64,000 nucleotides of DNA. It comes from Candidatus Latescibacterota bacterium (GTDB taxonomy: Bacteria; Latescibacterota; UBA2968). The first letter of the stretch is position 1, and each line of letters starts with the position of its first letter. Both the position numbers and the translations under genes were made by a program. This document shows positions 13,480-31,067 of this stretch, one piece after another. Below the pieces are notes generated by a model that worked only from the letters and a program-made list of their open reading frames with translations, ran no database searches and was not told where the DNA came from. The stretch spans positions 38,323 to 102,322 of the forward strand of contig OZ240241.1 of the NCBI GenBank assembly GCA_965198115.1. The letters are read 5' to 3'.

Positions 13480-13623
13480 ATGAAAGTGCTCAAGAAGCCA
13501 GTAGTGGCGCCCAGTGAGCAGGAGCTGCTCTACGAGGCGCTGGATTGCACCGAGGAGTGCTGTAGAGGCGGATGTCGGGTCAGAATCTTCGACACCGATG
13601 ATACAGACGACATCCTCTTCTAA
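13480..13623 (+). CDS. 47-aa Cys-rich putative precursor peptide (not in ORF track)
   Basis: My own translation gives MKVLKKPVVAPSEQELLYEALDCTEECCRGGCRVRIFDTDDTDDILF*. AAGGAGAG sits 8 nt upstream of the ATG. The gene is co-directional with, and 295 bp upstream of, the radical SAM/SPASM gene. It has four Cys within 10 residues and an acidic D/T tail. Confidence 0.6.
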   Translation: MKVLKKPVVAPSEQELLYEALDCTEECCRGGCRVRIFDTDDTDDILF

Positions 13624-13918: not shown

Positions 13919-15421
13919 ATGAAATGCAGTGTGTACAACCTCATTATAGACCTTGGAGAAGACGATCGATACTTGCTCTTTAATACGCTTTCGGGAGCGC
14001 TGATTGAAGCAGAAGCCGATGTAGCACATATGCTAAAGAGACATATTGAGCCGACCCCAACTCCGAGATTGCAGCAGACCTTTTCAGAAAACAAACCAAT
14101 TCCTGAAAATGCTATCGCAGGCATTGACGAAGAACGTAGAGGGGTTTTGTCAGACTGTGGATTCTTGGTAGAAGACCAGAAGGATGAAGTCGCTGAAGTG
14201 AGGGAACTGGATGTCACCCGATTTGCGGCTAATCGAGATGCTGATCGGGGAACACTCTCGCTCACGATCCTGCCCAGTATTCGATGTAATTTCGAGTGCT
14301 TCTATTGCTTTGAACCGTTGTCCCTAAGGCAGCAAGATAGTTCGATGACTGAGGAGGTTCAGGACAAGCTATGTACATACGTTGCGGAGAAGCTTCCGCT
14401 GCCAGAAATCAGAAAACTTAGCACAACGTGGTACGGTGGAGAACCTCTTCTCTACCCTCAGATCGTCGATTCTCTGCAGCGACGGATGAACGCGATTGCG
14501 GATGCGGAAGGCGTAAATGTGAAGAGCTCCATCGTCACGAACGGGTTTCTCTTGAGCCGAGATAACAGCGATATGCTTGTGGAGAACGGCATCACGACCG
14601 CCCAGGTAACACTCGACGGCCCTGCCAAAATTCACAATAAGAGGCGGCTGTACACACCAGATAGAAACGCGAACTACGACACAATCCTTACCAATCTCGC
14701 TAATGCAAACCCCGAGATGGATGTCATCATCCGCGTCAATGTCGGATCACACAATTCTGAGACAATAGAAGAATTGGTAAACGATCTCACCGAAGCTCGA
14801 ATCTGGCCTTACCGACGGGGAATCGGTGTCTACTTGGCTCCCGTAACTGGAGGTAAAGACTCACTACCTCGAGGGGAATATCTATCCCTTGAAGATGATT
14901 TCCGACTGGATATGGTCCGCAAATTCAACGAGTTGACCGATGGACCTAGAGCGAAGCTCGAGTTCAAACTTCCTTCGCTCACTAACATTTCTCAATGCGG
15001 TCACATAGTGGACGAAAAACACATCTGGGTGGTTGATCGTGTGGGGGATGTTTTCCGGTGCTGGGATGTTCCTGGCCAGGAGAGTCATTGTGTTGGCACG
15101 TTGGATGACCTGATTCACGATAGGATCAACGGGCTCAATCGTTGGGTCATGAATCCAGAAATACGTGAGGAGACGGGATGCTATAAGTGCAAGATGGCCC
15201 CAGTATGTACTGTCCCCTGTCCCTCGCATTACTTCTCTGAATGGAAATCTGGCGAGTATCTCGGAAAATACGACGACGGAAATCCTTTTTGCTGCGATTG
15301 GAAATTCGGGATCGAGAACAGGCTAGCTTCCGAGTACAAGTTCTACTCTGAGTCTCCTGAGTTGGTCTATGGGTTTCCAGGTGAAGGTAGCACGGAGAAC
15401 TTACTCCAGATTGCTGACTAA
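13919..15421 (+). CDS. radical SAM / SPASM-domain peptide-modifying enzyme
   Basis: 500 aa. The CX3CX2C cluster lies in LTILPSIRCNFECFYCFEP (Cys123/127/130). The C-terminal SPASM signature is GCYKCKMAPVCTVPCP (CX2CX5CX3C), with upstream Cys residues (CGH...FRCWD...HC). The N-terminal ~100 aa (YLLFNTLSGALIEAEADVAHML) resembles the peptide-binding leader region of SPASM maturases. AGGAGG lies 8 nt upstream of the ATG. Confidence 0.88.
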   Translation: MKCSVYNLIIDLGEDDRYLLFNTLSGALIEAEADVAHMLKRHIEPTPTPRLQQTFSENKPIPENAIAGIDEERRGVLSDCGFLVEDQKDEVAEVRELDVTRFAANRDADRGTLSLTILPSIRCNFECFYCFEPLSLRQQDSSMTEEVQDKLCTYVAEKLPLPEIRKLSTTWYGGEPLLYPQIVDSLQRRMNAIADAEGVNVKSSIVTNGFLLSRDNSDMLVENGITTAQVTLDGPAKIHNKRRLYTPDRNANYDTILTNLANANPEMDVIIRVNVGSHNSETIEELVNDLTEARIWPYRRGIGVYLAPVTGGKDSLPRGEYLSLEDDFRLDMVRKFNELTDGPRAKLEFKLPSLTNISQCGHIVDEKHIWVVDRVGDVFRCWDVPGQESHCVGTLDDLIHDRINGLNRWVMNPEIREETGCYKCKMAPVCTVPCPSHYFSEWKSGEYLGKYDDGNPFCCDWKFGIENRLASEYKFYSESPELVYGFPGEGSTENLLQIAD

Positions 15422-15443
15422 GGCTGAACTGATTTCGGACTTT

Positions 15444-17357
15444 ATGAAGCTTCTGACGCCGATCTCTTTTCTGGGAAGCTGCGAAATGAAATTGCTGGGT
15501 CTGAGGTTTGTGCTTGTAGTATGGATCACTACTGCTTGCACATACGACGTTACCGCAGCAGAACCGTACGACCTAAGCTACAGCGTATTCGCCCAGGACT
15601 CCGTGCTGTACAGATGGAACACGTCGGAAGGAGTGGTAGATGGTATGCTGGTCCGCCACAGATTCCCTCCCTTGGAACTCTGGGAGACATACCTATCGGA
15701 GGGGCTAGAAGCTCAGGAATACACGGAGAACGTGGTCTTCGCCTCGCGGGATTCCTCTGTTTATGGATGTGGCTTTGGAATAGACTATCCAGTCCTCATA
15801 CCCCGGAACGTACATCCGTACCTGACGGCACGCATATACGCTGATGGGCTTGGGCCCATTAAAGTCTGGATCCAGCTCCAGAACGATTGGATTTCCGTTC
15901 CCAAGGTAATCTCCGCCAAGGGCTACGACAAGATTGAGATAGGCCTAGGTAAACTGATAGGTTCTAGTAGGAAAATTTCCGGCGTGAAGATGATCGCTGA
16001 ACGAAGGAGCTTGAATGGCAGACTCATCGTTGGGGCTGTTCAGGTGACGACGAGGAGATTCCTAAAATGGCGATTTGGGGATAGGAGACCCGTTCCTATC
16101 AGGGCCCCATTGGGTGGCAGAGGCCCATTCGAAAGCTGGCCTCAGTGGGTGGGGTCTTTCGGTGATGGACCGGCGTTGAGATTTGGTGGTGGAACTGTCC
16201 CGGCGATGGCCAACCTGATGTCTGATCTGTTAAGAAAGTATTCTCGATACAGCATGAAGGACGTTAGTGTGAGCCAGGTGCTACGCCAACACGAGCAGCT
16301 TCTGCGTCCAGATATTGGGATCATAGAGTATTTAGATGGGCTGGAAGAGATCCTCGTACCACTCGGTGATACTCATTTTCGAGTTAATAGACCGACCTAC
16401 AGACACAGTACAACTCAACTCAATGATGTTGTGAAGTTCTATAGAATTGACGGACGTGTTATCGTTTCCGCTGTCTTCAGTCCTCGTCTTCAAAAGGTGA
16501 TCTCGGAAGGCGACGAAGTCACTGCCGTTGACGAAATGCCCATTGAGGATCACATAACGACAAGAACTATGTCCCTGGCAGGATCTACGGATTGGATCCG
16601 GGACCGGATCGTGATCGAGCGGCTGCTGACCAAGGAGGACTCTGTCGCAACTACAAGGGTCACCTTTCGGCGACCAGATGGACAAGAGTATTCGATTGAA
16701 CACCATACGAGCGATAGTCTGATGAGAGTCATCCCAAAGAATTTTCTAAAGGGAAGGTTCCACTACAAAGAGTTGGGAGAGTTCGCATACATACGTATAG
16801 GCACCTGGAGCGAAAAGACCTGGCCGTTCTTCTACTCCTACATTGACCGACTGAAAGAGAGCAAGGGGCTAATTCTTGATCTGCGGAGTAATGGTGGAGG
16901 AGACCTTTCCTTCTGTAGAATCGCTTCGTGCTTTGTAGACAAGCCATCAGTGATTTTCTCCGTTTGCAACATCGAAGGTGAGGGGGTCGAATCCATTCTT
17001 TTAAGACCAGATCCCTTCTTCTTCTATCGTGGCCCGGTTGCTGTCCTAGTGGATACAAGAACCGGCTGTGCTTCAGAGTTATTCGTGAGTGCGATCAAAA
17101 GGTATCACAAGGACACCATAGTAGTCGGTCAGAGCCCGACAAGTGGCGCAGTCGGTTTCATCAGAACGATATCGCTTCCGGGAGGGAACGAGATCACCTT
17201 TCCTGAACCCGTTTTGGACGCCTACAGTCGTGATCTCGAAGGAGTTGGTGTACAACCAGATATGAAAGCCAGCTTCGAATCATACCGGGACCTTGCACCT
17301 TATGACGATTCGCTTCTCGATCTTGCTATAGAGGCTCTTGCTCATCGTGCTATGTGA
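15444..17357 (+). CDS. secreted S41-family (tail-specific / C-terminal processing type) peptidase
   Basis: LILDLRSNGGGD and TGCASELFVSAIK are the S41 hallmark motifs (DLR.N.GG and the catalytic Ser region). It has a hydrophobic signal-like segment, KLLGLRFVLVVWITTACTYDVTAA. The start is uncertain (15444 or 15486). The track start at 15369 overlaps the upstream gene, so I rejected it. Confidence 0.8.
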   Translation: MKLLTPISFLGSCEMKLLGLRFVLVVWITTACTYDVTAAEPYDLSYSVFAQDSVLYRWNTSEGVVDGMLVRHRFPPLELWETYLSEGLEAQEYTENVVFASRDSSVYGCGFGIDYPVLIPRNVHPYLTARIYADGLGPIKVWIQLQNDWISVPKVISAKGYDKIEIGLGKLIGSSRKISGVKMIAERRSLNGRLIVGAVQVTTRRFLKWRFGDRRPVPIRAPLGGRGPFESWPQWVGSFGDGPALRFGGGTVPAMANLMSDLLRKYSRYSMKDVSVSQVLRQHEQLLRPDIGIIEYLDGLEEILVPLGDTHFRVNRPTYRHSTTQLNDVVKFYRIDGRVIVSAVFSPRLQKVISEGDEVTAVDEMPIEDHITTRTMSLAGSTDWIRDRIVIERLLTKEDSVATTRVTFRRPDGQEYSIEHHTSDSLMRVIPKNFLKGRFHYKELGEFAYIRIGTWSEKTWPFFYSYIDRLKESKGLILDLRSNGGGDLSFCRIASCFVDKPSVIFSVCNIEGEGVESILLRPDPFFFYRGPVAVLVDTRTGCASELFVSAIKRYHKDTIVVGQSPTSGAVGFIRTISLPGGNEITFPEPVLDAYSRDLEGVGVQPDMKASFESYRDLAPYDDSLLDLAIEALAHRAM

Positions 17358-17414: not shown

Positions 17415-18647
17415 GTGAGGTTTCTGTTTTGCCCTATGGCAACATATGGATTTGTCTATCCGGCCATCGGAATCGCGCTAGAACTGAGTCGAAGGGGGCA
17501 TGACGTTGCTTTCGTGACCGATAAGTCGTTCGACCACGTTCTAGCAGGTGAGGGGTTGCGAAGGATTCCAAACGGACGAAGTGATAGAAGAAGCTTCATT
17601 ATCGGGGACTGGGGCGAACCTGTCAGTGTCTGTTCTCAGGTTCGTCACATTCGATTCGCACTTGATGAATTTCGACCGGACGCGTGTGTGTCGTCGATTT
17701 TCTGTTTCGGAGCGCTGATAGCCAGGAAGTTATACGACCTACCCACGGCGGTGATAGGGCTTTGTACCTATATGTTTGCCCACCCGGATGACCTCAGGAC
17801 CCAAAGCGAGATTACTCCCTCTACGCGATCACTACAGCTCTCTGATGGATTCAGAGAAACCTACAATACTACCGGTCGCCTGTTTAAGATACCGGAAATG
17901 GGGTTGTGCGAATTTATTGAAGAGATGCCGGTACTTGGAGACCTGTTTCTGCTTCAGAATCTTGATGATCTCATCGAAGATTCAGATAGGTTGCCGGGAC
18001 GAGTGCATCTAGTAGGACCGTGTGGCTGGGATTCGCCAACCACAGATTCGGAGCTTGTCGACTGGATCAGGCAAGGACCGGCAGCGGGAGATCCGATTAT
18101 CTACGCGCAGCCGGGGGCACTCTTCGGGGCAAATTCGTTCTGGCCGGTCCTGACCAAGGCGCTGGAAGACGAAAGTGTGAGAGTAGTGGCCTCGGTTGGT
18201 AGGATGACGGGGAACGGTGATTACTCAAGCCTGCCTTCAAACTACTTCGTACGCGCACACGTGCCCCACCGACTCGTACTCCAGGTTGCAGATGGCGTTG
18301 TAACAGAGGGGCACACCAGTATAGTTCTCGCAGCACTCTCAGCAGGAGTGCCTTTGATGCTCATTCCTCACGGCGGCGAGGAGTTTGATTGCGCTGAAAT
18401 GTGTATCCGCGCGGGTGTCTGTGTCGGGATCAACCATGAGGAGTTGTCTCGTAACAATATGAAGCTGAAGCTGCGTGATCTCCTTCAGAGGACTGATATC
18501 CGAGAGCGTTCTACGAGGATTAAAACACTCATCCAAAATAACAACGGCCACAGTCGCGCAACAGACTTGATCGAAATTTTAGGCATGGAAAGGAGACAGA
18601 TCCTCCGCTCTTCGCTTTCGGCAAAGAATGTGCATTTGTCACCTTAG
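17415..18647 (+). CDS. GT1-family (MGT/UDP-glycosyltransferase-like) glycosyltransferase
   Basis: The N-terminus MRFLFCPMATYGFVYPAIGIALELSRRGHDVAFVTD and the C-terminal donor-binding block VTEGHTSIVLAALSAGVPLMLIPHGGEEFDCAEMCIRAGV match the GT-B macrolide/sterol glycosyltransferase pattern. Confidence 0.8.
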   Translation: MRFLFCPMATYGFVYPAIGIALELSRRGHDVAFVTDKSFDHVLAGEGLRRIPNGRSDRRSFIIGDWGEPVSVCSQVRHIRFALDEFRPDACVSSIFCFGALIARKLYDLPTAVIGLCTYMFAHPDDLRTQSEITPSTRSLQLSDGFRETYNTTGRLFKIPEMGLCEFIEEMPVLGDLFLLQNLDDLIEDSDRLPGRVHLVGPCGWDSPTTDSELVDWIRQGPAAGDPIIYAQPGALFGANSFWPVLTKALEDESVRVVASVGRMTGNGDYSSLPSNYFVRAHVPHRLVLQVADGVVTEGHTSIVLAALSAGVPLMLIPHGGEEFDCAEMCIRAGVCVGINHEELSRNNMKLKLRDLLQRTDIRERSTRIKTLIQNNNGHSRATDLIEILGMERRQILRSSLSAKNVHLSP

Positions 18648-20278: not shown

Positions 20279-21997
20279 TTGGAGGAAGATCAGACAGGTC
20301 TGATGAAGATGAGGCGAATGGCCGCGGGGGTTTACCCACACGCAATTGGCTTAGGAATCGTCTCAATAGTCGGTGTCTCGGTTGGGATCGCCAAGCCCGT
20401 GGTTTTTTCTAGAGTAATAGACCAGGGGCTTGTCGAAAACGACTGGGATACGACGTTTCGTCTTACGAAGTACCTTGGTCTAGTAGGTCTCTTTGGACTA
20501 CTGACATCCTCCATCCACCGGATCCTCGCAAGTTACATTTCGAATAGAATCGTTGAGAATATGAGGAACTGGCTAGTAGCCAGAGTCTTCGTTCTACAGT
20601 ATGAACACTTCGTCCAAACTCCCAGAGGGGAAATCCTGGCCACAATCGAGGACGATTGTGCCAACATAAGGGAATTCTCAGTTTCTACTCTGCAGTCAGC
20701 GATGAGAAGCTTCCTTAGCTTTGTCGCGGCCATATGCTATGTCGGGTGGGTGCAATGGAAGATGCTATTGGCTGGAGCCCTTGCCGTACCATTTATGGCC
20801 ATCTGCATGAGATTGTTCCGAAGGGTTGTATATGAGTGCGGATCACAAGTGGCTGAAGCAAGAGCTGTGGCTAAGAACTCTCTGGTGAATACTGTAGAGA
20901 GCATGAGTTCATTAAGGCAATTGGGCTTATCCGATTGGTCGCGTGATGTTATTCGAGGTGATCTTGGGAAGCTTCGGAGGAGTAGTATCCGTGAGCAAGT
21001 ATGGGAGAGCCTGACCGAACTGTCCTCGGGTTCTGTCTCATTGTTTAGCTATTTGGTGATTCTGGGATACGGTGGGTTGCTGGTTTCAACTAATGAGATA
21101 GGAATAGGGCATCTACTTGCCTTCCTAACGATGAGGCAAAGTTTTTTTGCGCCATTGGATTTCGTTGATCGTGTCTACAAAGGTTACTTCAAGGCCAAAC
21201 GTTCTCGCGAACGGATTGATTCACTGTCCAGCCAGCCACTCGAGACCGGTTTCCACGGTGGGGATAGCATCCCCGACGATTTCCATCCGCATTCCCTATC
21301 CATCGAAGACGTATCATTCTCGTTCGGAGACAAGGCTCTGCTATGCTCGGCCAATGCGACATTCACCACAGGGTGGAACGAACTAAGAGGACCCAATGGA
21401 TCAGGCAAGACAACACTCCTAGGAATCATTCTCAAAGTCCGTAACCCTCAACAGGGCCGGATCTTTGTGGACGGTTACAATGTTGCGAACTTCAACAACC
21501 GCAGCTGGCGAAGCCACATTTCTGTTGTTGCACAGGAGCCCTTCATATTTCAAGGGACACTGAGGGAGAACCTTAGACTTTTCGATGAGAACATTGATGA
21601 CTCTATGATTGATAGCATGCTTGAGCAGGTAGGTCTTCGAAAGTGGTGCGAAGAGAGGGGGCTCGACACAGAACTATCCCAAGGCGGAAGCGAAATTTCA
21701 GGAGGACTTAAGCAACGTTTGGCGATTGCCAGAGCTCTTCTGAGAAGCTCCGCCGTCTACATTTTCGATGAGCCAGTTTCCCAGGTCGACTTGCTTACGA
21801 AAGGAGACTTGCTTCGCGTGATGAAGAGATACACTCGCGGCGCAATTGTGATAGTTATATCCCATAGCGATCTTAGAGATGTAGCGGACCGGATCTTTCA
21901 CGTGAAGGATGGCCGAGTCAAAGGCGAAGAGGTTAAGCCCGAAGCTCTGTGTGAGCTAGATCCGTCGGTGCAAGGCGTTGTCGGACATCCATCCTAA
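20279..21997 (+). CDS. ABC exporter, fused transmembrane + ATP-binding domains (no peptidase domain)
   Basis: About six predicted TM segments precede Walker A GPNGSGKTTLLGI, the signature ISGGLKQRLAIARALL and Walker B VYIFDEPVSQVD. There is no N-terminal C39 domain. The start may be ATG 20303 rather than TTG 20279. Confidence 0.85.
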   Translation: MEEDQTGLMKMRRMAAGVYPHAIGLGIVSIVGVSVGIAKPVVFSRVIDQGLVENDWDTTFRLTKYLGLVGLFGLLTSSIHRILASYISNRIVENMRNWLVARVFVLQYEHFVQTPRGEILATIEDDCANIREFSVSTLQSAMRSFLSFVAAICYVGWVQWKMLLAGALAVPFMAICMRLFRRVVYECGSQVAEARAVAKNSLVNTVESMSSLRQLGLSDWSRDVIRGDLGKLRRSSIREQVWESLTELSSGSVSLFSYLVILGYGGLLVSTNEIGIGHLLAFLTMRQSFFAPLDFVDRVYKGYFKAKRSRERIDSLSSQPLETGFHGGDSIPDDFHPHSLSIEDVSFSFGDKALLCSANATFTTGWNELRGPNGSGKTTLLGIILKVRNPQQGRIFVDGYNVANFNNRSWRSHISVVAQEPFIFQGTLRENLRLFDENIDDSMIDSMLEQVGLRKWCEERGLDTELSQGGSEISGGLKQRLAIARALLRSSAVYIFDEPVSQVDLLTKGDLLRVMKRYTRGAIVIVISHSDLRDVADRIFHVKDGRVKGEEVKPEALCELDPSVQGVVGHPS

Positions 21998-22016
21998 AGG
22001 AACCGTGGAGGATAGG

Positions 22017-22853
22017 ATGGAAAACACATTAGATGTTGTTAGACGGCCAGACGTTTCGCCGGAAACATACTTGAAACTATATGGGAAACCGAACAAACCA
22101 TTTGTCATTGCGGATGGCGCAGAGGAATGGAAGGCCCGATCAACCTGGAACATGAGATTCTTTGAAGAGCGTTATGGAGATGTCAGACTGCAGGTGACAC
22201 GGATAGCGAGAGGGAGAACGGAATCCGCTGGTGTAAAGACCATAGCTGAATACGCAGACTACCTCCGCACTCAGAACCATGAAAAGGAGCCACTCTATCT
22301 CCGAGATTGGGTCCTGGAAGAGAAGTACCCTGAGCTTCTTTCTCACATCTCCGTGCCTTCCTATCTATGCAACTGGCTTGACCGTATCCCGATTAGCGGC
22401 AGTCGTAGACACTTCTGGCGAGGTTGGAAAGGTTGGATTTTCATCGGCCCAAAAGGAACTGGAACTGAGCTCCATACGGACGTTGTTAAATCCTCGGCCT
22501 GGCTGGCCCTCATAAGTGGACAAAAGGAGTGGGTATTAACCCCACCTAACGAACACGATCCAGCCACGTTTGCTAAAGTCGACCTGCTAAATCCTGACTA
22601 TGAAGCCTATCCCTTCCTTCGGAATTCGAAGAGGATCTGCTACACCCAGCGTCCAGGAGAACTATTAGTCGTCCCGAGTGGATGGTGGCATCAGGTCTGT
22701 AACTCTGATGCCACCATCTCTGTTTCTGGGAACTTCATAAATGAATCCAACATACACTTCTTCTGTAAGGACTTGCTTGAGAACGGATCACTTGCTGAAC
22801 TCAGAGACTACTCATGCTACATTCCAGAGATAGTCCCCTTTTTAGCATCCTAG
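22017..22853 (+). CDS. JmjC / cupin-8 Fe(II)/2-oxoglutarate oxygenase (paralog 2)
   Basis: WKGWIFIGPKGTGTELHTDVVKSSAWLALISGQKEWVLTPP (HxD) and GWWHQVCN. I chose ATG 22017 because GGAGG lies 8 nt upstream. The track start TTG 21978 overlaps the ABC gene. The stop TAG lies inside the IS256-a TSD. Confidence 0.8.
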   Translation: MENTLDVVRRPDVSPETYLKLYGKPNKPFVIADGAEEWKARSTWNMRFFEERYGDVRLQVTRIARGRTESAGVKTIAEYADYLRTQNHEKEPLYLRDWVLEEKYPELLSHISVPSYLCNWLDRIPISGSRRHFWRGWKGWIFIGPKGTGTELHTDVVKSSAWLALISGQKEWVLTPPNEHDPATFAKVDLLNPDYEAYPFLRNSKRICYTQRPGELLVVPSGWWHQVCNSDATISVSGNFINESNIHFFCKDLLENGSLAELRDYSCYIPEIVPFLAS

Positions 22854-22854
22854 G

Positions 22855-24227
22855 GAGCTATAATCAAAAGGTGTGGAAAAGAGAAAGGGCGACCCTACCC
22901 TTCCCGTGAGATAGTTGATTCACACAAAACCGGGTGAGAGGCCCGGTTGGGAAGGAGGATCGCCGTGAAGGAACATACGCATAGAGCCCCATTGAAGTCC
23001 ATGCCGACGTGGGAGACGGTTGACGATTGGATCCGTGAAGAGATCCAGGGCCGGTTCCAGTCCATTCTGGAGGAGGAGGCGACCGCGTTCTTGGGCCGGT
23101 CGTGGTATGAGCGCCGAGCCGAGGTTGATAGCTCCAGGGGCTACAGGAACGGCTACGGCAAGCCCCGGCGTCTCTCGACGAGCTGCGGAACGATCAAGGT
23201 CCGGCGTCCCCGGGTTCGTGGTCTGGAAGAGCGGTTTGAAAGCCGCATCCTCCCCCTGTTCGCCCGGAGAACCAGGGCCATTGGAGATCTGCTTCCCGAC
23301 CTTTATCTCCACGGTCTCTCCCAGGGCGACTTCGAGTTGTCTTTGCGTGCGCTGCTCGGTGATGGCGCGCCGCTTTCGCCGACCTCGATCGCTCGTCTTC
23401 GAGGGAAGTGGGAGGTCGACTTCCAGGACTGGAAAGAAAGGCGTCTGGATAATCGCGAACTGGTCTACGCCTGGGCTGATGGCATCTACGTCAAAGCCGG
23501 GCTCGAGCGCGAGAAGGCGTGTCTGCTGGTCGTGATCGGCGCGATGAGCGACGGCAGCAAGGAGATCCTGGCGATAGAACCCGGTTATCGAGAGTCTACA
23601 GAATCCTGGCTCACGGTGCTCCGGGATCTCCGGGATCGCGGGCTCGAACATCCTGTCCTGATCGCCGCGGACGGGAATATGGGCATCTGGGCGGCCGTTG
23701 ATCAGGTCTGGCCAGAGAGCCGGCAACAACGGTGCTGGAACCACAAGATCCTCAACGTGCTCGACAAGGTCGCCAAGCGTGCACAGGCTGAAGCCCGCGC
23801 ACTGCTCGTCCAGATCCCCTATGCCGGCACGAAAAAGGAGGCCGAGAAGCTCCGGAAACGCTTTGCCGCACGGTATCGCTCACAGTTCCCTGCCGCCGTG
23901 GAGACGCTCGAAAGAGACTGGGATCGGATGGTCACGTTCTACGACTTCCCGAAGGAACACTGGAAACACCTGAGAACCACGAACGTCGTCGAGAGCCCCT
24001 TTGCTTCCGTTCGGCTTCGCACAAACGCCACCAGGCGATTCAAGAAAGTCAGGAACGCCACGACTCTCATCTGGCGTACGCTCAAGGTCGCAGAGAGCCG
24101 ATTCAGGAAACTCACCGCGCCACACTTGCTACAACAAGTCTACGATCAGAAACACTCAACCGGACCGCAGGTCGAAGCCGGGAAGATGGCCGCCTGATTT
24201 CTTTTACACACCTATTGACCTGAGCTC
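22855..24227 (+). mobile_element. IS256-family IS, type a (IS256-a), copy 1
   Basis: The inverted repeats are GAGCTATAATCAAAAGGTGTGGAAAAGA and (rc) GAGCTCAGGTCAATAGGTGTGTAAAAGA. A perfect 8-bp TSD ATCCTAGG sits at 22847..22854 and 24228..24235. Confidence 0.9.
22947..24197 (+). CDS. IS256-family (mutator-type) transposase, 416 aa
   Basis: A single uninterrupted ORF with typical IS256 blocks: ...YERRAEVDSSRGYRNGYGKPRRLSTSCGTIKVRRPRVRG..., ...DGIYVKAGLEREKACLLVVIGAMSDGSKEILA..., ...QRCWNHKILNVLDKV..., ...HLRTTNVVESPFASVRLRT... Confidence 0.92.
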   Translation: MGRRIAVKEHTHRAPLKSMPTWETVDDWIREEIQGRFQSILEEEATAFLGRSWYERRAEVDSSRGYRNGYGKPRRLSTSCGTIKVRRPRVRGLEERFESRILPLFARRTRAIGDLLPDLYLHGLSQGDFELSLRALLGDGAPLSPTSIARLRGKWEVDFQDWKERRLDNRELVYAWADGIYVKAGLEREKACLLVVIGAMSDGSKEILAIEPGYRESTESWLTVLRDLRDRGLEHPVLIAADGNMGIWAAVDQVWPESRQQRCWNHKILNVLDKVAKRAQAEARALLVQIPYAGTKKEAEKLRKRFAARYRSQFPAAVETLERDWDRMVTFYDFPKEHWKHLRTTNVVESPFASVRLRTNATRRFKKVRNATTLIWRTLKVAESRFRKLTAPHLLQQVYDQKHSTGPQVEAGKMAA

Positions 24228-24383
24228 ATCCTAGGATCGATCTGAGCCTACTGGATTCCGAAAGATCTCTACGTGAAGCGTCGATTGCATTTGTGTCCCA
24301 CACGAGTCCAGAATCGGTTTCGTTCAGAGTCGAGGGCCAACGAGTTGGCGAGCATGTTGACCTTCTAACTCGAGAGTATATTA

Positions 24384-26291
24384 GTGAGTGTCAAAGTAGC
24401 TGTCATAGACAGTGGGCTGTGCGAGTCCCATCCCAAGTTAAAAGGGGTACGCGTCACGGACCGCGTGTCGGTAGGAAGCGACGGGATTTCTCGAGGATGT
24501 ACCAGCGATGTTTGGGGACACGGTACGGCCTGCACGCAGATAATTCACAGTGTTCTGGATAGAGAGCTTCGTAGGAGTTGTGAGTTCAAGATCGTAAAGG
24601 TTTTTGATCGCCAACTGGTGGTTAGTCAGGACATCCTTCTAAAAGCCCTCCTGTGGTGTATGGATTCGGGCGTAGACGTAATTAGTGTGAGTATCGGCGT
24701 TCGGGCGTCCTCGCCTCCCCAAGAGCTTGTGGACCTCTGTCTTGAGGCACATTCGAAAGGCATCATACTAGTAGCGCCAGACCACAACGAAGGGGATGGC
24801 CCATGCTACCCAGCGTCACTTTCGCATGTCTTTGGCGTTACAGGCGGAGTTTTGAGATCACGGCGTGAGTTTGGTGTTAACGAGGAGAGCGATATTGAGT
24901 TCGTTGGTCGGGGAACCAATCAACGTGTGGCGTGGATCAATGACTCCTACATCTTCGACAGCGGGACAAGCTTTGCCTCTGCGCAACTAGCAGGAATAGT
25001 GTGCAATGTAAGAGCGCAGTTTCCAGAATCTGATCCGTCAGAATTGAAAGCACACCTCATGTCAATTGGACTTAGAGGTGTGCCTATTACCAGCAGGTTT
25101 GTCTCTGCCGGAACAGGCACCGGCCGCTGGGCGCCCCAGGGGACAGACACGATTGAAGAGGTGGTCGAGCGGAATTTTTCACCCAAAAGATTCAGCTGGA
25201 TGCGACGCGCTGCTCTCTATCCAGTATGTAACAAAGAATTTCACGCGATCGAGCACTTCAGTAGGCAATGCCAGTTTGAGCTTGTGGAAATTCTGGACTT
25301 TCCAAAGGGAGTGATTTCCCACCGAGATATTGAGATCGATGGAAGGAAATACACGAAAAAGTGGCGAGTAAGTGATATTGAAAGGTCGTTTGATACCCTC
25401 ATTGTTGGATATCCATACGAGACGCCCTTTGGCGCTGATCACAAGGCCTATAAAGACATCTTAGACCAGGCCTGGCATACGGAGTGCAACTTCTTTTGTC
25501 TTAGCGGCGATGTAGAGAAACAATTGCAAAAGGAAAGGGACAGCCTCGGTAAGGTGTCGTCACAGATTTACTGTCCAAGGGTTGACACAGCTGACCTTCA
25601 ACGACTTGCGTGTCTCCAAAGTGAAGGTGAGACAACAAGACCGGTTCTCGCAGTAGTGGGGACAAATGAAAAGCAGGGCAAGTTCTCGCTTCAGTTGCGT
25701 ATAAAGAAGGTCATGGAAGATGCAGGATATGAAGTAGGTTGGCTATCCACCGAGCCGCAAGGTGAGCTTTTCGGCGCCTCGTTTGCATTTCCGTATGGTT
25801 ACAATGGAACGGTCGCTCTCAATCCGCACGACTGGCCCGTAGCCGTCTCGTGCGCGATTCGTGGGATAGAAATGGCCGGTAGCCCAGACATCATTATCAC
25901 GGGCCATCAATCAGGTCTACTGCCCTACACCAGAGGAAATTTGGCGGACATCTATCTGCAACACTTGACATTCCTGAGTGGCTGTCGCGCTGATGCCGCT
26001 GCGTGCGTGATAAGTCCAGAAGATGACATCAGGACAGTCGAGGATGTTATTGGTGTCCTGCAACATCTCCTGCGAGTCCCGGTGCTCTTTTTCGCACTGC
26101 ATCGAAACGTGAGATCACTTGGGACTCTGGACAGTGGGAAGAATTATGTAAAAGTAAGGAGATTGAAGGAGGCAGAGTGGCAGGAACGCGCGAGGGAACT
26201 TAGGTCTCGGTTCGGCATTCCTGTAATTGATTCTCACAGTGAACATTATGACAGTGACATACTTCGAGCAGTGGAGGACTGTTTTGCCTGA
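24384..26291 (+). CDS. fusion protein: N-terminal S8 subtilase domain + C-terminal DUF1611-like (DgcN-like) domain
   Basis: The S8 catalytic triad contexts are VAVIDSGL (Asp), HGTACTQII (His) and SGTSFASAQLAG (Ser), within residues 1-230. Residues ~400-600 contain LAVVGTNEKQGKFSLQLRI and ITGHQSGLLPY. These resemble the DUF1611 P-loop-like GT....GK motif and its GQGS..HP block. The GTG start has a weak RBS. Confidence 0.7.
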   Translation: MSVKVAVIDSGLCESHPKLKGVRVTDRVSVGSDGISRGCTSDVWGHGTACTQIIHSVLDRELRRSCEFKIVKVFDRQLVVSQDILLKALLWCMDSGVDVISVSIGVRASSPPQELVDLCLEAHSKGIILVAPDHNEGDGPCYPASLSHVFGVTGGVLRSRREFGVNEESDIEFVGRGTNQRVAWINDSYIFDSGTSFASAQLAGIVCNVRAQFPESDPSELKAHLMSIGLRGVPITSRFVSAGTGTGRWAPQGTDTIEEVVERNFSPKRFSWMRRAALYPVCNKEFHAIEHFSRQCQFELVEILDFPKGVISHRDIEIDGRKYTKKWRVSDIERSFDTLIVGYPYETPFGADHKAYKDILDQAWHTECNFFCLSGDVEKQLQKERDSLGKVSSQIYCPRVDTADLQRLACLQSEGETTRPVLAVVGTNEKQGKFSLQLRIKKVMEDAGYEVGWLSTEPQGELFGASFAFPYGYNGTVALNPHDWPVAVSCAIRGIEMAGSPDIIITGHQSGLLPYTRGNLADIYLQHLTFLSGCRADAAACVISPEDDIRTVEDVIGVLQHLLRVPVLFFALHRNVRSLGTLDSGKNYVKVRRLKEAEWQERARELRSRFGIPVIDSHSEHYDSDILRAVEDCFA

Positions 26292-26544
26292 TGGTACGGA
26301 CAACATCAGGGGGAAGTTGGTCGAATTAAGCAAGGAGTTTATGCCTGACTCTTCGATTGTCGACGATACGGAGAGACTCATCGTAATTGGATCAGAATCT
26401 GTTAGGGCGATCGAGTTTCTCATGGCAATCGAGGATGAGTTCGAGATTGAGATAGAAGATGACGCGCTTACTCCCGATTTTTTCTCCGACTACACATTTA
26501 TCTGCAAGGCAGTGGAAGAAGCCCTCGAAGTCTCACCTGAGTGA
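26284..26544 (+). CDS. acyl-carrier-protein-like small protein
   Basis: The 86-aa version starts at TTG 26284, with GGAGG 7 nt upstream, and overlaps the upstream stop by 8 nt. It has a four-helix ACP-like pattern: ...IRGKLVELSKEFMPDSSIVDDTERLIVIGSESVRAIEFLMAIEDEFEIEIEDDALTPDFF.... A Ser sits in GSES at the position of the canonical DSL phosphopantetheine site. The track gives 26227..26544. Confidence 0.6.
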   Translation: MPDGTDNIRGKLVELSKEFMPDSSIVDDTERLIVIGSESVRAIEFLMAIEDEFEIEIEDDALTPDFFSDYTFICKAVEEALEVSPE

Positions 26545-26559: not shown

Positions 26560-27438
26560 ATGGTTCGGACATTTATTGTCGAAGAGCACAATGAGGCGTT
26601 CTTGGTTTGGAGTCGAGCAATTTCTGCTGGTCTCATACCAGCCACCGGGAACGAGCTAGTTCACGTTGACCAACATTCAGATCTTGATGCGCCAAGGCTA
26701 AAGAGATCTGTGAAAGACACTATGGATGACGATGAGCTACTGGAGTTTGTCTTTCGTGATCTAAGGATCGGAACCTTCATCATTCCAGCTGTCTACCTGG
26801 GGTTGTTTAACTCGATTCAATGGGTCAAGAAACGCCACAATTTGGAGACCCAGAAAACGTTATTTGTCCGATCTTACAACACTTCTGGAAAGAAACTCAT
26901 CATACAAGATGAACTTCCACTAGGGATCGATCTCACAGATGATGACGTGCAGTCTTTTCAGCTTATTCGTCAGAATGTCGAGAACCTTGAGTGCACAAAC
27001 GATGCCGTTCTAGACATAGACTTGGATTACTTCTCAGCCGAGGAAAACCCGGCGGAACGCACGGACTGCGTTGCCGAGATAACTCGAGAAGAGTACTGGT
27101 CATTCCACAACGACAGATATCACCAGATTAACTATCTCGGACCAATCGTGGAAGCGGTAGAGAAGAACGGGAGATACTTTTACACCTTCAACATGTTCGA
27201 TGAGATCTACCCCTCGCGTCTGGCTGTTGATGATGGGATCATTCAGCAGAGAGTTGAAGAACTCATCGAAGTACTCTCAAGAATCGAGCTTGTTCCTAAA
27301 TTGATAACCATATGTCGTTCTGTGAAGAGCGGCCACACACCCTCCAGCCAGGGCCAACTGATTGAAACTATGGTGCTCAAAGGGCTTAGAGCATTGTACG
27401 AGATCGACCCACAGATGGTCGACGACTCACTCGCATAG
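26560..27438 (+). CDS. UPF0489 (C5orf22-like) family protein
   Basis: TFIVEEHNEAFLVWSRAISAGLIP...ELVHVDQHSDL, IGTFIIPAVYLGLFNSIQWV, VLDIDLDYFSAEENP and PKLITICRSVKSGHTPSSQGQLIETMVLKGLRALY run in parallel with the conserved blocks of eukaryotic UPF0489/C5orf22 as I remember them (VVEDH.EVL...HFDSHPDL; IENWIMPAVYAGH; VLDIDLDFFS; TIARSS...). Confidence 0.7.
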   Translation: MVRTFIVEEHNEAFLVWSRAISAGLIPATGNELVHVDQHSDLDAPRLKRSVKDTMDDDELLEFVFRDLRIGTFIIPAVYLGLFNSIQWVKKRHNLETQKTLFVRSYNTSGKKLIIQDELPLGIDLTDDDVQSFQLIRQNVENLECTNDAVLDIDLDYFSAEENPAERTDCVAEITREEYWSFHNDRYHQINYLGPIVEAVEKNGRYFYTFNMFDEIYPSRLAVDDGIIQQRVEELIEVLSRIELVPKLITICRSVKSGHTPSSQGQLIETMVLKGLRALYEIDPQMVDDSLA

Positions 27439-27599: not shown

Positions 27600-28098
27600 G
27601 GTAAGCCCCCGGCTCTGCCGGGGAGACTCCCAGTGTTTGACAATTCCGGGAAATAGACAAGAGCCTTCCGATTCCGTGGACCGCTCAAAGCTCACGGAAG
27701 GAAGGCTCTCAATGAACGACCTTCAGAGTCTACGTCACACGGTATGGGAGTGCAAGTATCACGTTGTTTTGGGTTCCGAAGTATCGGAGAAAGTCTGTAT
27801 GCGGAGCTTCGCCGGTATCTGGGAGAAGCTTTCCGCGATCTTGCCAAGGCAGAGGGAATCTCGTGTTGAAGAAGGTCATCTGCGTCCGGATCACGTGCAC
27901 ATGTTGATTTCGATCCCGGCCGAAGCACTCAGTAGCTCAGACGGTAGGGTTCATCAAAGGAAAGAGTGCGATCCACATTGCTCGGAACTACCTGGGACGT
28001 AGTTCGAACTTCACGGGGCAGCATTTCTGGGCAAGAGGCTACTGGGTCTCCACCGTTGGTAAGGATGAACAAATGGTTCGGGAGTTATATCCGGATGT
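27600..28098 (+). mobile_element. IS200/IS605-family element, degenerate
   Basis: The left-end hairpin is GGTAAGCCCCCGGCTCTGCCGGGGAGACTC. It is followed by a Y1 transposase reading MNDLQSLRHTVWECKYHVV.../...PKYRRKVLYAELRRYLGEAFRDLAKAEGI.../...EEGHLRPDHVHMLISIP.../...GFIKGKSAIHIARNYLGR..NFTGQHFWARGYWVSTVGKDEQMVREYI, spread over three frames. Confidence 0.75.
27712..28098 (+). pseudogene. tnpA: IS200-type TnpA (Y1 transposase), at least three frameshifts
   Basis: See the element entry. The HUH region (HVHML) and the catalytic-Tyr region (ARGYWVSTVG) are recognisable but out of frame with each other. Confidence 0.75.
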
Positions 28099-29736: not shown

Positions 29737-29969
29737 AGGGGGTAGCAGAATATGTGAGGCAACGACCCCTCAGGGGTAGCAGAAACCCTGAGTCAATGCG
29801 GGTGGGAGTTCTAATTGTCGCTAATCAATCCAGAACCAGGAGCGGGAAGACCAGCGTCTCGACCAGTCTCAACATCTTCAGATAATCGCCCCCTTTAGGT
29901 GGCGCACACGGTCTTAAACCGCTTTGAGCGGTTCACAAGTTTTTCAAGCCTCCAGCTTTGCCGGAGGTC

Positions 29970-31067
29970 ATGACTACAGTGAAAGTGGATGATGGGGGGG
30001 ACATTTTGCAGGTGATGGTCGACATCCATTTAGATCCACCGATACGCACCTGGACCTACCACGCGTTTCGAATGTCAGTTTTAGGGAAGGGTCGTTTCTT
30101 TCGACCGTGGATCCTAAGCAATTTCATCCAGATGTGCTGTCGAGATTTGAGTGACTTCTCTTGGGAATCCTTAGAGGTGTACGAAGCCTATCTTGATGTA
30201 CCGTATGGGTATAACTTCTTTTGTCCTGAAAAGTTCTACAATGCAGCGGGCTTGGTACAGCATTCAGTTGATAGAAACCTGTTTAGCGAATGGACCGATG
30301 GAAGGCTGGCAGAATTCGTTTGTAGATCCATTGACCGCGGCTTCTGTTTTTACACATACCTCAACTATCAGTCCGTGCTCAGAGAGGGGAACACACCGAT
30401 TCATCCATCGAAAAGTAACCATGGGACAATGATATGTGGCTATGATAAAAGTAAACGTGCATTCGCGATTTTGGGCTATGAATCCGGGAGCTATGGTCTT
30501 TCTTGGGTGGACATTAACCTCGTAGAAAGCGCGTACCAAGAGACCTACCTTGAATCGATGAGCAGAGCCCATCAGACCATCTGGCTATTGGGCAGAGACG
30601 ATACTCCTTATTGGTTTAGCTTGGAAAAGGTGGCAGGACAGCTTCGTGACTATCTCGACTCTCAGAACAGGCTTGGATTCGGAAGCCTTCTTGTTCAGCA
30701 GCCATCGTCACTATGTTATGGGTTGGAGACCTATGAGACGGGTCTCATTGGGCACTTAGGTGTAGTTCAGGAGAGGCCCAAACTCCTCTACTATCATCTT
30801 TTCCACGCTCTTAAGGAGCACAAGGCGCTGATGCTCGAAAGAATTCAACACCTCAATCATATGCGGATTGTTGATCATAGGATAGTGGAGGAATACTCCT
30901 CGATCTTCAGATGGGCTGAAAATGTCAGAATGGTAATGCTAAAGTTCAGGATGAGACCAAGGAAAAAGACGCCAGATCGAATGATCAATAGATTGCGGGA
31001 AATGGCTGAGAAGGAGGCGGAGGTATTGGAAAAGACTTACCAAGCGATAAGTCAAGTGGGGGAATAA
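29970..31067 (+). CDS. hypothetical protein (365 aa), weak papain/transglutaminase-like His motif
   Basis: I chose ATG 29970 because GGAGG lies 5 nt upstream. SNHGTMICGYDKSKRAFAILGY resembles the catalytic-His strand of papain-fold enzymes (H..V.GYD). I recognise no other family motif. Its low GC matches the cluster genes. Confidence 0.5.
   Translation: MTTVKVDDGGDILQVMVDIHLDPPIRTWTYHAFRMSVLGKGRFFRPWILSNFIQMCCRDLSDFSWESLEVYEAYLDVPYGYNFFCPEKFYNAAGLVQHSVDRNLFSEWTDGRLAEFVCRSIDRGFCFYTYLNYQSVLREGNTPIHPSKSNHGTMICGYDKSKRAFAILGYESGSYGLSWVDINLVESAYQETYLESMSRAHQTIWLLGRDDTPYWFSLEKVAGQLRDYLDSQNRLGFGSLLVQQPSSLCYGLETYETGLIGHLGVVQERPKLLYYHLFHALKEHKALMLERIQHLNHMRIVDHRIVEEYSSIFRWAENVRMVMLKFRMRPRKKTPDRMINRLREMAEKEAEVLEKTYQAISQVGE

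Follow-up and report, generated by a model that had tools for sequence, protein, structure and literature searches.

A subtilase–DUF1611 fusion protein and its carrier protein in an orphan DD(I/V)LF RiPP cluster of Latescibacterota

Gene content of the cluster

The window, by which we mean the whole 64,000-nucleotide stretch analysed here, contains a full gene cluster (Table 1) of the orphan DD(I/V)LF RiPP family, known from the published flm and ohk clusters (Pfeiffer et al., ChemBioChem 2025; PMC12703449). The family is defined by a precursor that ends in DD(I/V)LF and contains Arg, encoded next to a pfam12640 peptide arginase (PMC12703449); in the window the precursor ends in ...DTDDILF and has three Arg residues, and an arginase gene directly follows the carrier gene. 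The arginase scores slightly under the cutoff of its model (4.4e-93, 312 bits; cutoff 350) and carries EEHNEAF, DQHSD and LDIDLDYFS, which are motifs of the family (PMC12703449). The initial annotation of the fusion and carrier genes had missed the arginase next door, the place of the locus in a published family and the fact that the fusion architecture is common.

Table 1. Features of the cluster, with window coordinates.
Feature	Position (nt)	Strand	Basis
FtsX/MacB-type duplicated permease, counterpart of flm orf2 and OhkJ	8024..10405	+	
Precursor peptide, 47 aa, DD(I/V)LF type, MKVLKKPVVAPSEQELLYEALDCTEECCRGGCRVRIFDTDDTDDILF	13480..13623	+	
Radical SAM/SPASM peptide maturase, FlmE/OhkG-like	13919..15421	+	Family models
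S41 C-terminal processing peptidase	15369..17357	+	Family models; co-occurrence in related loci
MGT-family glycosyltransferase	17415..18647	+	Pfam/NCBIfam
ABC exporter, membrane domain and ATPase	20279..21997	+	Pfam/NCBIfam
Cupin_8/JmjC hydroxylase, FlmI/OhkL-like	21978..22853	+	Pfam and match to flm/ohk gene lists
IS256-type element between cupin gene and fusion gene	22854..24228	+	
S8 protease domain of the fusion, QhpE-like	24384..25094	+	Residues 1-237, triad D9, H46, S196; Pfam/NCBIfam, alignment and model
DUF1611/DgcN-fold domain of the fusion	25140..26291	+	Residues 253-635; Pfam, TIGR04066, family profile, AlphaFold and Foldseek
Carrier protein, 86 aa, TTG start	26284..26544	+	PP-binding Pfam, ACP NCBIfam, PDB profile search; Ser39 at nt 26398-26400
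Peptide arginase, FlmR/OhkR family, Arg to ornithine	26560..27438	+	NCBIfam and motifs
369-aa protein, probably distantly related to BtrH_N/DUF4872 ligases (CtaG/BtrH type)	29958..31067	+	hhalign

The best model for the radical SAM enzyme is that of FlmE/OhkG (NF052473; 220 bits, cutoff 500), and the enzyme also matches the QhpD model at 1.7e-15; its score on TIGR04068 (CcpM) is 63.2 bits against a cutoff of 500, which places it outside that family. A set of three genes, the radical SAM enzyme, the fusion and the carrier, had been proposed initially; the radical SAM gene is indeed there, but 9 kb upstream of the fusion and separated from it by IS insertions, while in the IS-free homologous locus L001 some 0.9 kb separate its end from the fusion gene downstream. 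ORFs lying between the cluster genes of the window are IS fragments, and the IS256-type element in front of the fusion gene is one among several young IS copies within the cluster.

The 369-aa protein falls outside BtrH_N/DUF4872, as it has no Pfam match and no invariant or alignable catalytic Cys, and its likeness to true members (hhalign probability 82%, E 1e-5) extends from the His region onward only. We had considered it as an acyl-carrier-to-peptide transferase and downgraded this candidate, since it lacks both the Pfam match and the conserved Cys, and two orthologs lack even the His. Neither a phosphopantetheinyl transferase nor a thioesterase turned up in the region of the window that was scanned, and in family scans the window's downstream half yielded no hint of taxonomy or pathway.

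The fusion protein and its carrier

The ORF at 24384-26291 (+) starts with GTG and encodes a two-part protein of 635 aa, an identical copy of which is in the public protein collection. The initial annotation had seen a complete S8 triad in its first third, and an S8 protease is borne out by the Pfam model Peptidase_S8 (PF00082; E 6.5e-14, residues 3-227, 52.3 bits against a gathering score of 21.8), by the triad in the D-H-S order expected of a subtilase, with all three residues invariant among 31 aligned homologs, and by solved subtilisins, which match this half down to 6e-12. The Asn of the DHNEG motif occupies the oxyanion position, as read from the alignment. The S8 half is compact, without signal peptide or pro-domain, and its top NCBIfam match is QhpE (NF049966; 2.3e-33, 115.4 bits, cutoff 165); judged by sequence, it is a relative of QhpE and not a member of the QhpE equivalog.

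The assignment of the C-terminal half to DUF1611, also suggested initially, holds on two counts. PF07755 matches residues 416-620 above its gathering score (29.4 bits against 25), and AlphaFold predicts for residues 250-635 (pLDDT 91, pTM 0.91) the two-lobe fold known from DgcN (7XRJ) and from 2OBN and 2G0T, both DUF1611 structures; Foldseek returned all three at E 3e-11 to 6e-10 with TM scores of 0.55-0.68 over about 400 aligned columns. DgcN, deposited as an N-acetyltransferase, ranks third and, of the DUF1611 structures matched, is the sole one with a named function; at lower scores the neighbours are ATP-dependent P-loop ligases (Mur ligases, BioD, CobB). A profile of the family independently matches 2G0T at 2.5e-6. 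The N lobe is Rossmann-like and carries an invariant NKE(M/F)H motif (K284, E285); its Pfam model, PF17396, is called in only some homologs. The C lobe contains the P-loop GTNEKQGKF (residues 426-434, nt 25659-25685) with K433, and further key residues are E457, Q509 and D537. All of these P-loop cleft residues, K284/E285 included, are invariant in the 31 homologs, at identities of only 22-48%. This constancy of triad and cleft alike, at such identities, points to selection on both halves as enzymes. In the full-length model (pTM 0.63) the two well-folded halves are joined by a disordered linker (residues 238-252, pLDDT<50), and therefore no cooperation of the two active sites is evident from the model.

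The carrier gene overlaps the TGA of the fusion gene (26289-26291), as had been noted; the overlap is 8 nt, and the spacer between GGAGG (26273-26277) and the TTG is 6 nt and not 7 nt. Its product corresponds exactly to a publicly called gene. PP-binding (PF00550) matches with 21.8 bits (gathering score 20.8); the NCBIfam models for ACPs reach 4.5e-8, each remaining under its cutoff. Since a direct homolog search with the carrier returned only 2 proteins, orthologs were gathered from homologous loci; a profile of 8 of them matches 107 solved carrier proteins among PDB sequences at E<0.01, with Ser39, invariant in the 8 orthologs, aligned to their phosphopantetheine serine. The initial suggestion of a carrier-like protein with a modifiable Ser is thus upheld, and by these alignments we take the 86-aa protein to be a true carrier protein with Ser39 as the presumed phosphopantetheine site.

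It had also been proposed that the three genes could be a distant, fused version of the TIGR04066/TIGR04068/TIGR04069 set. The link is real but distant for two of the three: TIGR04066 covers residues 361-629 of the fusion (model positions 90-354 of 361) at 1.5e-11 and 43.9 bits, far from its cutoff of 200, so that the fusion lies outside this family just as the radical SAM enzyme lies outside TIGR04068. It does not extend to TIGR04069, which is absent from the 10 families listed for the carrier at a threshold of E<=0.1.

Related loci and a proposed mechanism

About 800 representatives of the family were found (795 at E<=1e-30), and the fusion architecture is present in most of the best 150 of these 795; one split version was found, with the gene order unchanged, and some fused homologs are named 'TIGR04066 family' by JGI. 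Loci were scanned with the closer sequences of the C-terminal domain family. Of 21 informative loci, 19 have the carrier gene right beside the fusion, in many cases with an overlap at the stop codon of the latter; L004 and L005 have the fusion and no adjacent carrier gene. In most clade-I loci the precursors and the radical SAM maturase immediately precede the fusion gene; clusters of the second clade are without a radical SAM enzyme and have Rce1-like (CPBP) immunity-type proteins and exporters. Dedicated phosphopantetheinyl transferases (PF01648) are encoded in four clusters (L002, L018, L021 and flm), and two loci, L006 and L013, encode thioesterases. In L010, L015, L017 and L026 the neighbourhood of the carrier gene includes a BtrH_N/DUF4872 ligase that has the HYNC cysteine. 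Precursors contain much Asp/Glu and are strongly conserved at both ends, the C-terminus being invariant. These loci widen the DD(I/V)LF family to Latescibacterota, and the fusion with its carrier is no oddity; it is a widespread, previously unstudied part of orphan DD(I/V)LF RiPP clusters.

What could the two halves and the carrier do together? We propose that the 635-aa protein would be a two-function RiPP maturase which works with the carrier encoded beside it, and that leader cleavage would be coupled to an acylation of the peptide that depends on this carrier, a reading whose chances we put at about even. Going by enzyme families, the DDILF-type precursor would be modified in the cytoplasm, with Cys residues cross-linked by the radical SAM/SPASM enzyme, Arg converted to ornithine by the arginase and more changes introduced by JmjC hydroxylases and the glycosyltransferase. 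The S8 domain, whose identity is QhpE-like, would then cut its presumed substrate, the N-terminal MKxLxKP... leader, with the cut predicted after ...YEAL, and the S41 peptidase probably takes off the acidic ...DDILF follower. Finally, the DUF1611/DgcN-fold domain would act on a thioester at the phosphopantetheine arm of the carrier, and an acyl or aminoacyl group would end on the peptide, so that the fusion probably trims and then caps it ('cleave and cap').

No AMP-binding or ATP-grasp gene was found in any locus with Pfam calls, and because of this the DUF1611 domain is the sole candidate thioester enzyme common to every locus. As for the acceptor, the arginase is present in some loci and absent from many, and the precursor cores of L003 and L011 have no Lys or Arg. 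Ornithine was rejected as a universal acceptor on these grounds and, for the same reasons, the new N-terminus is the sole amine common to all cases, which would make the alpha-amine freed by leader cleavage the likeliest acceptor. Two versions may be envisaged. The DUF1611 domain might itself transfer the group from acyl-carrier to peptide amine, which would be the reaction of DgcN, whose substrates are free D-glutamate and acetyl-CoA, with both substrates macromolecular; we put this forward tentatively. A version in which the carrier receives its group from the domain, with acyl-CoA as the source or at the expense of ATP, and in which the last transfer falls to a BtrH/CtaG-type ligase where there is one, seems to us somewhat unlikely.

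The fusion itself, the invariant cleft residues, the adjacency of the carrier, the accompanying phosphopantetheinyl transferases, thioesterases and BtrH-type ligases and the DgcN fold all count for cleavage coupled to acyl transfer. Counting against it are the identity to DgcN of about 12%, a P-loop fold common to ATP-dependent ligases at lower scores, the lack of a phosphopantetheinyl transferase, a thioesterase and an alignable Cys of the BtrH-like protein in the window, and the two fusions without adjacent carrier. The initial hypothesis of carrier-dependent acyl or aminoacyl transfer combined with leader cleavage is consistent with all the context found.

The structural neighbours that follow the DUF1611 proteins, ATP-dependent and carboxylate-activating, allow a different role for the P-loop domain, namely that of a Mur/BioD/CobB-type ligase which tethers a peptide carboxylate (the C-terminus or an Asp/Glu side chain) to the carrier thiol, for thioesterase, condensation or BtrH/CtaG-type enzymes then to cyclise or transfer the peptide. 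The acidic precursors with their invariant C-terminus would suit such a hand-off, as would the thioesterases in two loci, the condensation-domain protein in flm and the absence of any other loader. However, the P-loop Lys is followed by Phe and not Ser/Thr (GKFT; DUF1611 likewise has GKRTT), atypical for Mg-ATP binding, the invariant ILF-COOH would more readily be accounted for as a PDZ ligand for the S41 peptidase that co-occurs, and the one functionally named structure that was matched is deposited as an N-acetyltransferase; we consider this alternative unlikely. A bridge between ribosomal and thiotemplate logic, in which after leader removal the P-loop domain links either the peptide itself or one of its building blocks to the carrier in a thioester and thioesterase, condensation or CtaG/BtrH-type enzymes cyclise or extend it, is in our opinion quite improbable; if true, a maturation route so far unrecognised would be in general use in hundreds of clusters of at least five phyla.

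The DgcN fold match and the two carrier-less loci would also fit plain N-acetylation, in which the DUF1611 domain uses acetyl-CoA directly on the new N-terminus or on ornithine, as DgcN does, and the carrier serves another pathway enzyme. This is doubtful in view of the near-constant adjacency of the carrier, often translationally coupled to the DUF1611 end, and of the many clusters without any other carrier-using enzyme. It has to be considered too that recognition domains are frequent in RiPP enzymes, that the precursor is conserved at both ends and that the BtrH-like protein of the window already has the appearance of a pseudo-enzyme, all of which would agree with the DUF1611-like domain and the carrier-like protein being scaffolds, which would bind one end of the precursor, leader or follower, and bring the peptide to both protease and radical SAM enzyme. 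The invariance of the P-loop Lys, E457 and Q509, and equally of the carrier Ser, together with the dedicated phosphopantetheinyl transferases and thioesterases of related clusters, makes a purely non-catalytic role rather improbable. The second-clade clusters, finally, raise the question whether the module acts on a peptide at all, or makes or detoxifies a separate small molecule or gives immunity, being merely co-located with bacteriocin-type exporters; with a protease half of the leader-peptidase type and a gene position directly behind maturase and precursors in most clade-I loci, we regard this as very unlikely.

Should the acyl-transfer reading be true, DUF1611 enzymes would be a new class of catalyst that caps or lipidates ribosomal peptides, with a use in engineering genetically encoded lipopeptides.

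Comparison with known systems

QhpE is a subtilisin-like leader protease in the maturation of quinohemoprotein amine dehydrogenase, where it works with the radical SAM enzyme QhpD. It is a separate protein of some 220 aa and cuts a subunit of an enzyme instead of a secreted peptide. The S8 half shares with it the compact build without pro-domain and the pairing with a Cys-cross-linking radical SAM/SPASM enzyme, but scores under the equivalog cutoff and is fused. With DgcN and other DUF1611 proteins the second half shares the fold of both lobes, and their motifs have recognisable counterparts (GTDxxxGKxTT becomes GTxxxQGKFT, TGQTG becomes TEPQG and EGQG becomes GxQSG). Identity is 12-15%, the match to DgcN (7XRJ) is one of fold, and the domain here is protease-fused, carrier-partnered and set in a RiPP context.

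Stand-alone carriers with BtrH_N-type ligases are known from the thiotemplate systems of CtaG (closthioamide), BtrH (butirosin) and AsbE, and characterised ligases of the BtrH_N/DUF4872 class take carrier-bound acyl donors (PMC7183216, PMC12865890). Four of our related loci have such ligases. Those pathways, however, use ATP-grasp or adenylating carrier loaders and make non-ribosomal products, whereas the present loci have a ribosomal context and lack loaders of these kinds, and the window's BtrH-like protein lacks the catalytic Cys. The selidamides are acylated RiPPs in which an arginase makes ornithine in the same type of pathway, and peptide acylation is also the outcome proposed here; they rely on GNAT-type N-acyltransferases acting on ornithine or lysine, in contrast to the present system, which has no GNAT and also occurs without arginase and with cores lacking Lys/Arg.

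The TIGR04066/TIGR04068 (CcpM)/TIGR04069 'peptide maturation system' of TIGRFAMs/NCBIfam, so far an in-silico entry without assigned chemistry, likewise combines a radical SAM/SPASM enzyme, a DUF1611-like protein and an acyl-carrier-related protein, next to Cys-rich precursors. We found no functional account in the literature on DUF1611 and TIGR04066. Apart from the low scores, the present system differs in the fusion of the DUF1611-like protein to an S8 protease and in its DDILF-type precursors.

Closest are the flm and ohk clusters, which share the DDILF-type precursor, the FlmE/OhkG-like radical SAM enzyme, the FlmR/OhkR-like arginase, the S41 peptidase, the cupin/JmjC protein, the FtsX permease and the ABC exporter. 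The window differs in its glycosyltransferase and carbamoyltransferase, in having no cluster-encoded phosphopantetheinyl transferase and in being interrupted by IS elements. The S8 protein of ohk is shorter, at 371 aa, and OhkE (357 aa) might be a separate DUF1611 half, whereas flm has counterparts of both the fusion and the carrier, FlmH (638 aa, 'S8 family serine peptidase') and FlmJ (87 aa, ACP-like), which are listed without comment (PMC12703449). That study characterises the arginases only, its main text makes no mention of the DUF1611 half of FlmH or of the carrier, and its cluster list is restricted to Bacteroidetes (PMC12703449). One cluster of that list, from Puia sp. SMAG_U5183 (our L013), was checked here and has the fusion, carrier, arginase, radical SAM enzyme, S41 peptidase and thioesterase. 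Phosphopantetheinyl transferases, thioesterases and CtaG/BtrH-type ligases thus accompany the fusion in related clusters, and a hallmark enzyme of the DD(I/V)LF family can now be seen as a putative leader protease joined to a DgcN-fold domain with a carrier partner.

The fusion protein and its carrier

The 635-aa ORF that the initial annotation read as a subtilase joined to a DUF1611-like domain is present as described, with an identical product among public protein records, and both of its ends hold up. The N-terminal part matches Pfam Peptidase_S8 (residues 3-227, E 6.5e-14) and solved subtilisins (down to 6e-12), its best named family being the subtilisin-like leader protease QhpE (2.3e-33, 115 bits, short of the 165-bit cutoff). 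Since the first residues are the Asp motif itself (MSVKVAVIDSG), the protein has neither a signal peptide nor a pro-domain and therefore should work in the cytoplasm. The C-terminal part matches PF07755 (29.4 bits; gathering score 25) and also TIGR04066 (1.5e-11), where its 43.9 bits fall far below the 200-bit cutoff. An AlphaFold model of residues 250-635 (20 homologs as input) is confident (pLDDT 91, pTM 0.91), and in the PDB it is closest to 2OBN and 2G0T, both DUF1611 structures, and to 7XRJ, deposited as 'N-acetyltransferase DgcN' (E 3e-11 to 6e-10, TM 0.55-0.68, ~400 aligned columns across both lobes). 2G0T is also matched by sequence with the family profile (2.5e-6), an alignment that pairs GTDxxVGKRTT with GTxxxQGKFT, TGQTG with TEPQG and EGQG with GxQSG. 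Identity to the D-glutamate N-acetyltransferase DgcN is only ~12%. Among 31 aligned homologs, D9, H46 and S196 of the protease are invariant, as are K284, E285, the P-loop residues G432 and K433, E457, Q509 and others in the DUF1611 half, while D537 is kept in at least 90%. In the full-length model (pLDDT 88.7, pTM 0.63) residues 238-252 are disordered: the model predicts two well-folded halves that a flexible linker joins, and it carries no information on how they are oriented to each other.

The 86-aa product of the next gene, identical to that called in the public record, is indeed a carrier (PP-binding, 21.8 bits; gathering score 20.8). Its TTG start does follow a GGAGG, with a spacer of 6 nt rather than the 7 proposed, and the gene does overlap the fusion's TGA (26289-26291), by 8 nt. 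Several ACP models of NCBIfam match at 4.5e-8 to 1e-3, every one under its cutoff. With a profile of eight carrier orthologs taken from unrelated clusters, 107 carrier proteins of known structure are matched (E<0.01), best the aminoacyl carrier protein 4H2S (6.9e-8, level with ordinary ACPs), and the predicted attachment site, Ser39, is invariant in the eight orthologs and aligned to the phosphopantetheine serine of solved carriers. The observation behind the initial annotation is confirmed, far beyond chance.

Distribution and linked genes

A word-indexed search for full-length S8+DUF1611 proteins returned ~100 (24-48% identity) from Bacteroidota, Latescibacterota, Spirochaetales, Gemmatimonadota and the myxobacterium Minicystis; a locus scan turned up a further one in a Clostridia MAG. 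Their only public names are 'S8 family serine peptidase', 'DUF1611 domain-containing protein', 'TIGR04066 family' and an epimerase misnomer. An exhaustive search with the C-terminal-domain profile gave 795 hits (E<=1e-30), each representing a 50%-identity cluster; the fusion is the norm, because among the best 150 the majority measure 590-680 aa and have the domain at ~240-640. One fetched locus, L026, carries a split or frameshifted form with unchanged gene order: S8 (213 aa), a 33-nt gap, DUF1611 (418 aa), then carrier, a 209-aa protein and BtrH genes.

We took a carrier census over the window and 25 fetched loci, and among the 21 distinct loci with sufficient flanking DNA a carrier ORF directly adjoins the fusion in 19 (exceptions L004 and L005). 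Other neighbours are PF01648 phosphopantetheinyl transferases (L002, L018, L021 and, as FlmK, the published flm cluster), PF00975 thioesterases (L006, L013) and BtrH_N+DUF4872 proteins with a HYNC cysteine (L010, L015, L017, L026). Characterised enzymes of the papain-like class to which the last-named proteins belong (CtaG, BtrH and AsbE) use carrier-bound donors to form amide bonds (PMC7183216, PMC12865890). Taken together, the accessory genes speak for genuine thioester chemistry. Among the loci for which Pfam calls were precomputed, none has an AMP-binding or ATP-grasp gene.

Always directly upstream of the Cys-bearing BtrH_N/DUF4872 gene lies a conserved 207-210-aa protein gene without a family match (58-72% identity among three compared), which follows the carrier gene in L015, L017 and L026 and is absent from the window. 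The window and four other loci encode instead a 340-380-aa protein with no Pfam match and no alignable catalytic Cys, the His being missing in two orthologs. From the His region onward hhalign relates it to BtrH_N/DUF4872 (probability 82%, E 1e-5); it is probably a distant relative of these carrier-dependent ligases and may be a pseudo-enzyme or scaffold. In some fusion-bearing DDILF clusters a YcaO protein is encoded along with B12-binding radical SAM enzymes, and therefore the core chemistry of the family varies while fusion and carrier stay constant.

The window's cluster and its precursors

Features of the window and of fetched homologous loci (locus coordinates follow the locus name)
Feature	Position	Strand	Remarks
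Fusion gene	24384-26291	+	GTG start, 635 aa
Carrier gene	26284-26544	+	TTG at 26284; 86 aa; GGAGG 26273-26277
Peptide arginase, FlmR/OhkR family	26560-27438	+	4.4e-93; all three family motifs; directly 3' of carrier gene
Precursor	13480-13623	+	47 aa, ends ...DTDDILF; three Arg, four Cys; 296 nt upstream of radical SAM gene
Radical SAM/SPASM maturase	13919-15421		upstream of fusion; best model FlmE/OhkG
S41 peptidase	15369-17357		upstream of fusion
Glycosyltransferase, ABC exporter, Cupin_8/JmjC protein			upstream of fusion
FtsX-type permease			farther upstream of fusion
NodU/CmcH-type carbamoyltransferase	1028-2674	+	upstream cluster edge, beyond IS fragments
Second Cupin_8/JmjC protein	2738-3595	-	upstream cluster edge, beyond IS fragments
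340-380-aa BtrH-like protein	29958-31067	+	window
340-380-aa BtrH-like protein	L001 2378-3403; L003 18280-19338; L011 14476-15624; L016 11400-12437
207-210-aa protein	L010 17716-18345; L015 10302-10925; L017 10196-10828; L026 7525-8154
Split fusion	L026 5327-7257
YcaO, B12-binding radical SAM	L002 4859-6661; L018 6049-7863
ISL3-type, four copies	6389-7808, 11945-13367, 18772-20194, 44932-46374
IS256-type, two copies	22854-24228, 34897-36272
IS630-type, two copies	39054-40325, 58951-60225
ORFs sharing a peptide	27637-28002, 32677-32837	+	first lies between arginase and BtrH-like genes
Three PhyH-type dioxygenases beside xylose-isomerase-like TIM-barrel protein	49453-50313, 50334-51221, 52180-53079, 54059-54901	-

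The IS-free homologous locus L001 (48% identity) shows the ancestral arrangement: permease, three precursors, radical SAM, fusion, carrier, arginase, S41, glycosyltransferase, formyltransferase, exporter. In the window, copies of one IS type share about 99% identity or more, which points to a recent burst, and older IS256 fragments are also present. Several copies occupy intergenic gaps of the peptide cluster, one IS256 copy (22854-24228) beginning immediately past the cupin stop codon and one ISL3 copy ending ~110 nt upstream of the precursor gene; the biosynthetic ORFs look intact, and the insertions may have broken operon expression while sparing them. The carbamoyltransferase and second Cupin_8/JmjC protein are candidate extra tailoring enzymes. 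The radical SAM and S41 ORFs share 53 nt (15369-15421), and the real S41 start may lie farther downstream. Two ORFs have the peptide SLRHTVWECKYHV in common and may be copies or fragments of a single mobile-element gene. The row of three paralogous PhyH-type genes is unconnected with the fusion and may belong to another small pathway.

The sixteen different precursors collected (window, L001-L003, L010, L011 and L018) follow a common plan: MKxL(V/I/K)KP comes first, then a short leader and a core holding 2-4 Cys, and after an acidic stretch the peptide closes with (D/E/G)ILF; L013 holds one more of DDILF type. The arginase is found in only part of these loci (window, L001, L010, L013), and the L003 and L011 peptides contain neither Lys nor Arg past the N-terminal MKxLxKP motif. 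The sole amine that all could have in common is therefore the N-terminus freed by leader removal, which would be the acceptor provided that the job is identical everywhere and that the acceptor is an amine. An S41 peptidase accompanies most DDILF-type loci, with a weak PDZ_4 match on the L001 ortholog. C-terminal processing peptidases of the Tsp/Ctp type read free hydrophobic C-termini via their PDZ domain, which would make ...ILF-COOH the handle that the S41 peptidase binds and cuts off as a follower. Alanine replacement of the DD(I/V)LF motif does not abolish arginase activity (PMC12703449), which fits another enzyme as the reader of the motif.

Proposed mechanism and relation to known systems

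The analysis establishes what the domains are, that both catalytic centres are conserved, that the carrier is a near-obligate partner, that there are accessory genes of thioester type and that the loci scanned lack any other loader. QhpE removes the leader from a peptide cross-linked by a radical SAM enzyme; by analogy, the S8 domain would do so here in the cytoplasm, and the DgcN-fold domain would transfer an acyl or aminoacyl thioester onto the carrier or off it, giving an acylated peptide with the new alpha-amine as the likeliest acceptor. This general model, leader cleavage with carrier-dependent peptide acylation, seems to us evenly balanced between right and wrong. That the DUF1611 domain would itself be the acyl-carrier-to-peptide N-acyltransferase is a tentative version of it; that it would load the carrier, with a BtrH/CtaG-type ligase finishing the transfer, is a more doubtful one.

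The main weaknesses of the general model are the ~12% identity to DgcN, a window in which no phosphopantetheinyl transferase or thioesterase gene was found among the scanned ORFs of the cluster, the inactive-looking BtrH-like protein and the IS insertions. Weaker PDB neighbours of the modelled domain (E ~1e-5, TM 0.2-0.5) are Mur ligases, dethiobiotin synthetase, CobB and MeaB-type P-loop proteins, and that the peptide itself would be tethered to the carrier at the expense of ATP is an unlikely reading; so is direct N-acetylation from acetyl-CoA, as the DgcN fold might suggest, with the near-obligate carrier serving something else. Purely scaffolding roles, for a protein with both catalytic centres conserved, we consider quite improbable, and a function not aimed at the peptide, in loci so often shared with precursors, hardly credible.

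By cluster content the window locus belongs to the orphan DD(I/V)LF RiPP family defined in PMC12703449, because its gene content matches that of the published flm and ohk clusters, which have the same gene set. The gene tables there contain a 638-aa 'S8 family serine peptidase' (FlmH), an ACP-like protein of 87 aa (FlmJ), a holo-ACP synthase (FlmK) and a protein with a condensation domain, none of them discussed in the main text, as well as several cupin/JmjC proteins and no carbamoyltransferase. Puia sp. SMAG_U5183, also listed there, is our L013, with full-length fusion, carrier, arginase, radical SAM, S41 and thioesterase. The kinship earlier suggested with the TIGR04066/04068/04069 set survives as that of a distant, S8-fused relative, but the curated cutoffs of all three models were missed, and an NCBIfam scan gave no TIGR04069 match to the carrier.

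Among other systems, QhpD/QhpE likewise combines a mini-subtilase with a radical SAM enzyme, the fusion loci have stand-alone carriers and papain-like ligases in common with the closthioamide and butirosin pathways, and acylated RiPPs such as selidamides are alike in proposed outcome; none of these resembles the window locus in using a DUF1611-fold enzyme. The literature searched assigns a function neither to the S8-DUF1611 fusion nor to TIGR04066. The components and the cluster family are already on record and no new principle emerges on present evidence, while the module of protease, DgcN fold and carrier had been neither recognised nor explained; it concerns a large family that spans several phyla, and it opens an orphan RiPP class to direct testing.
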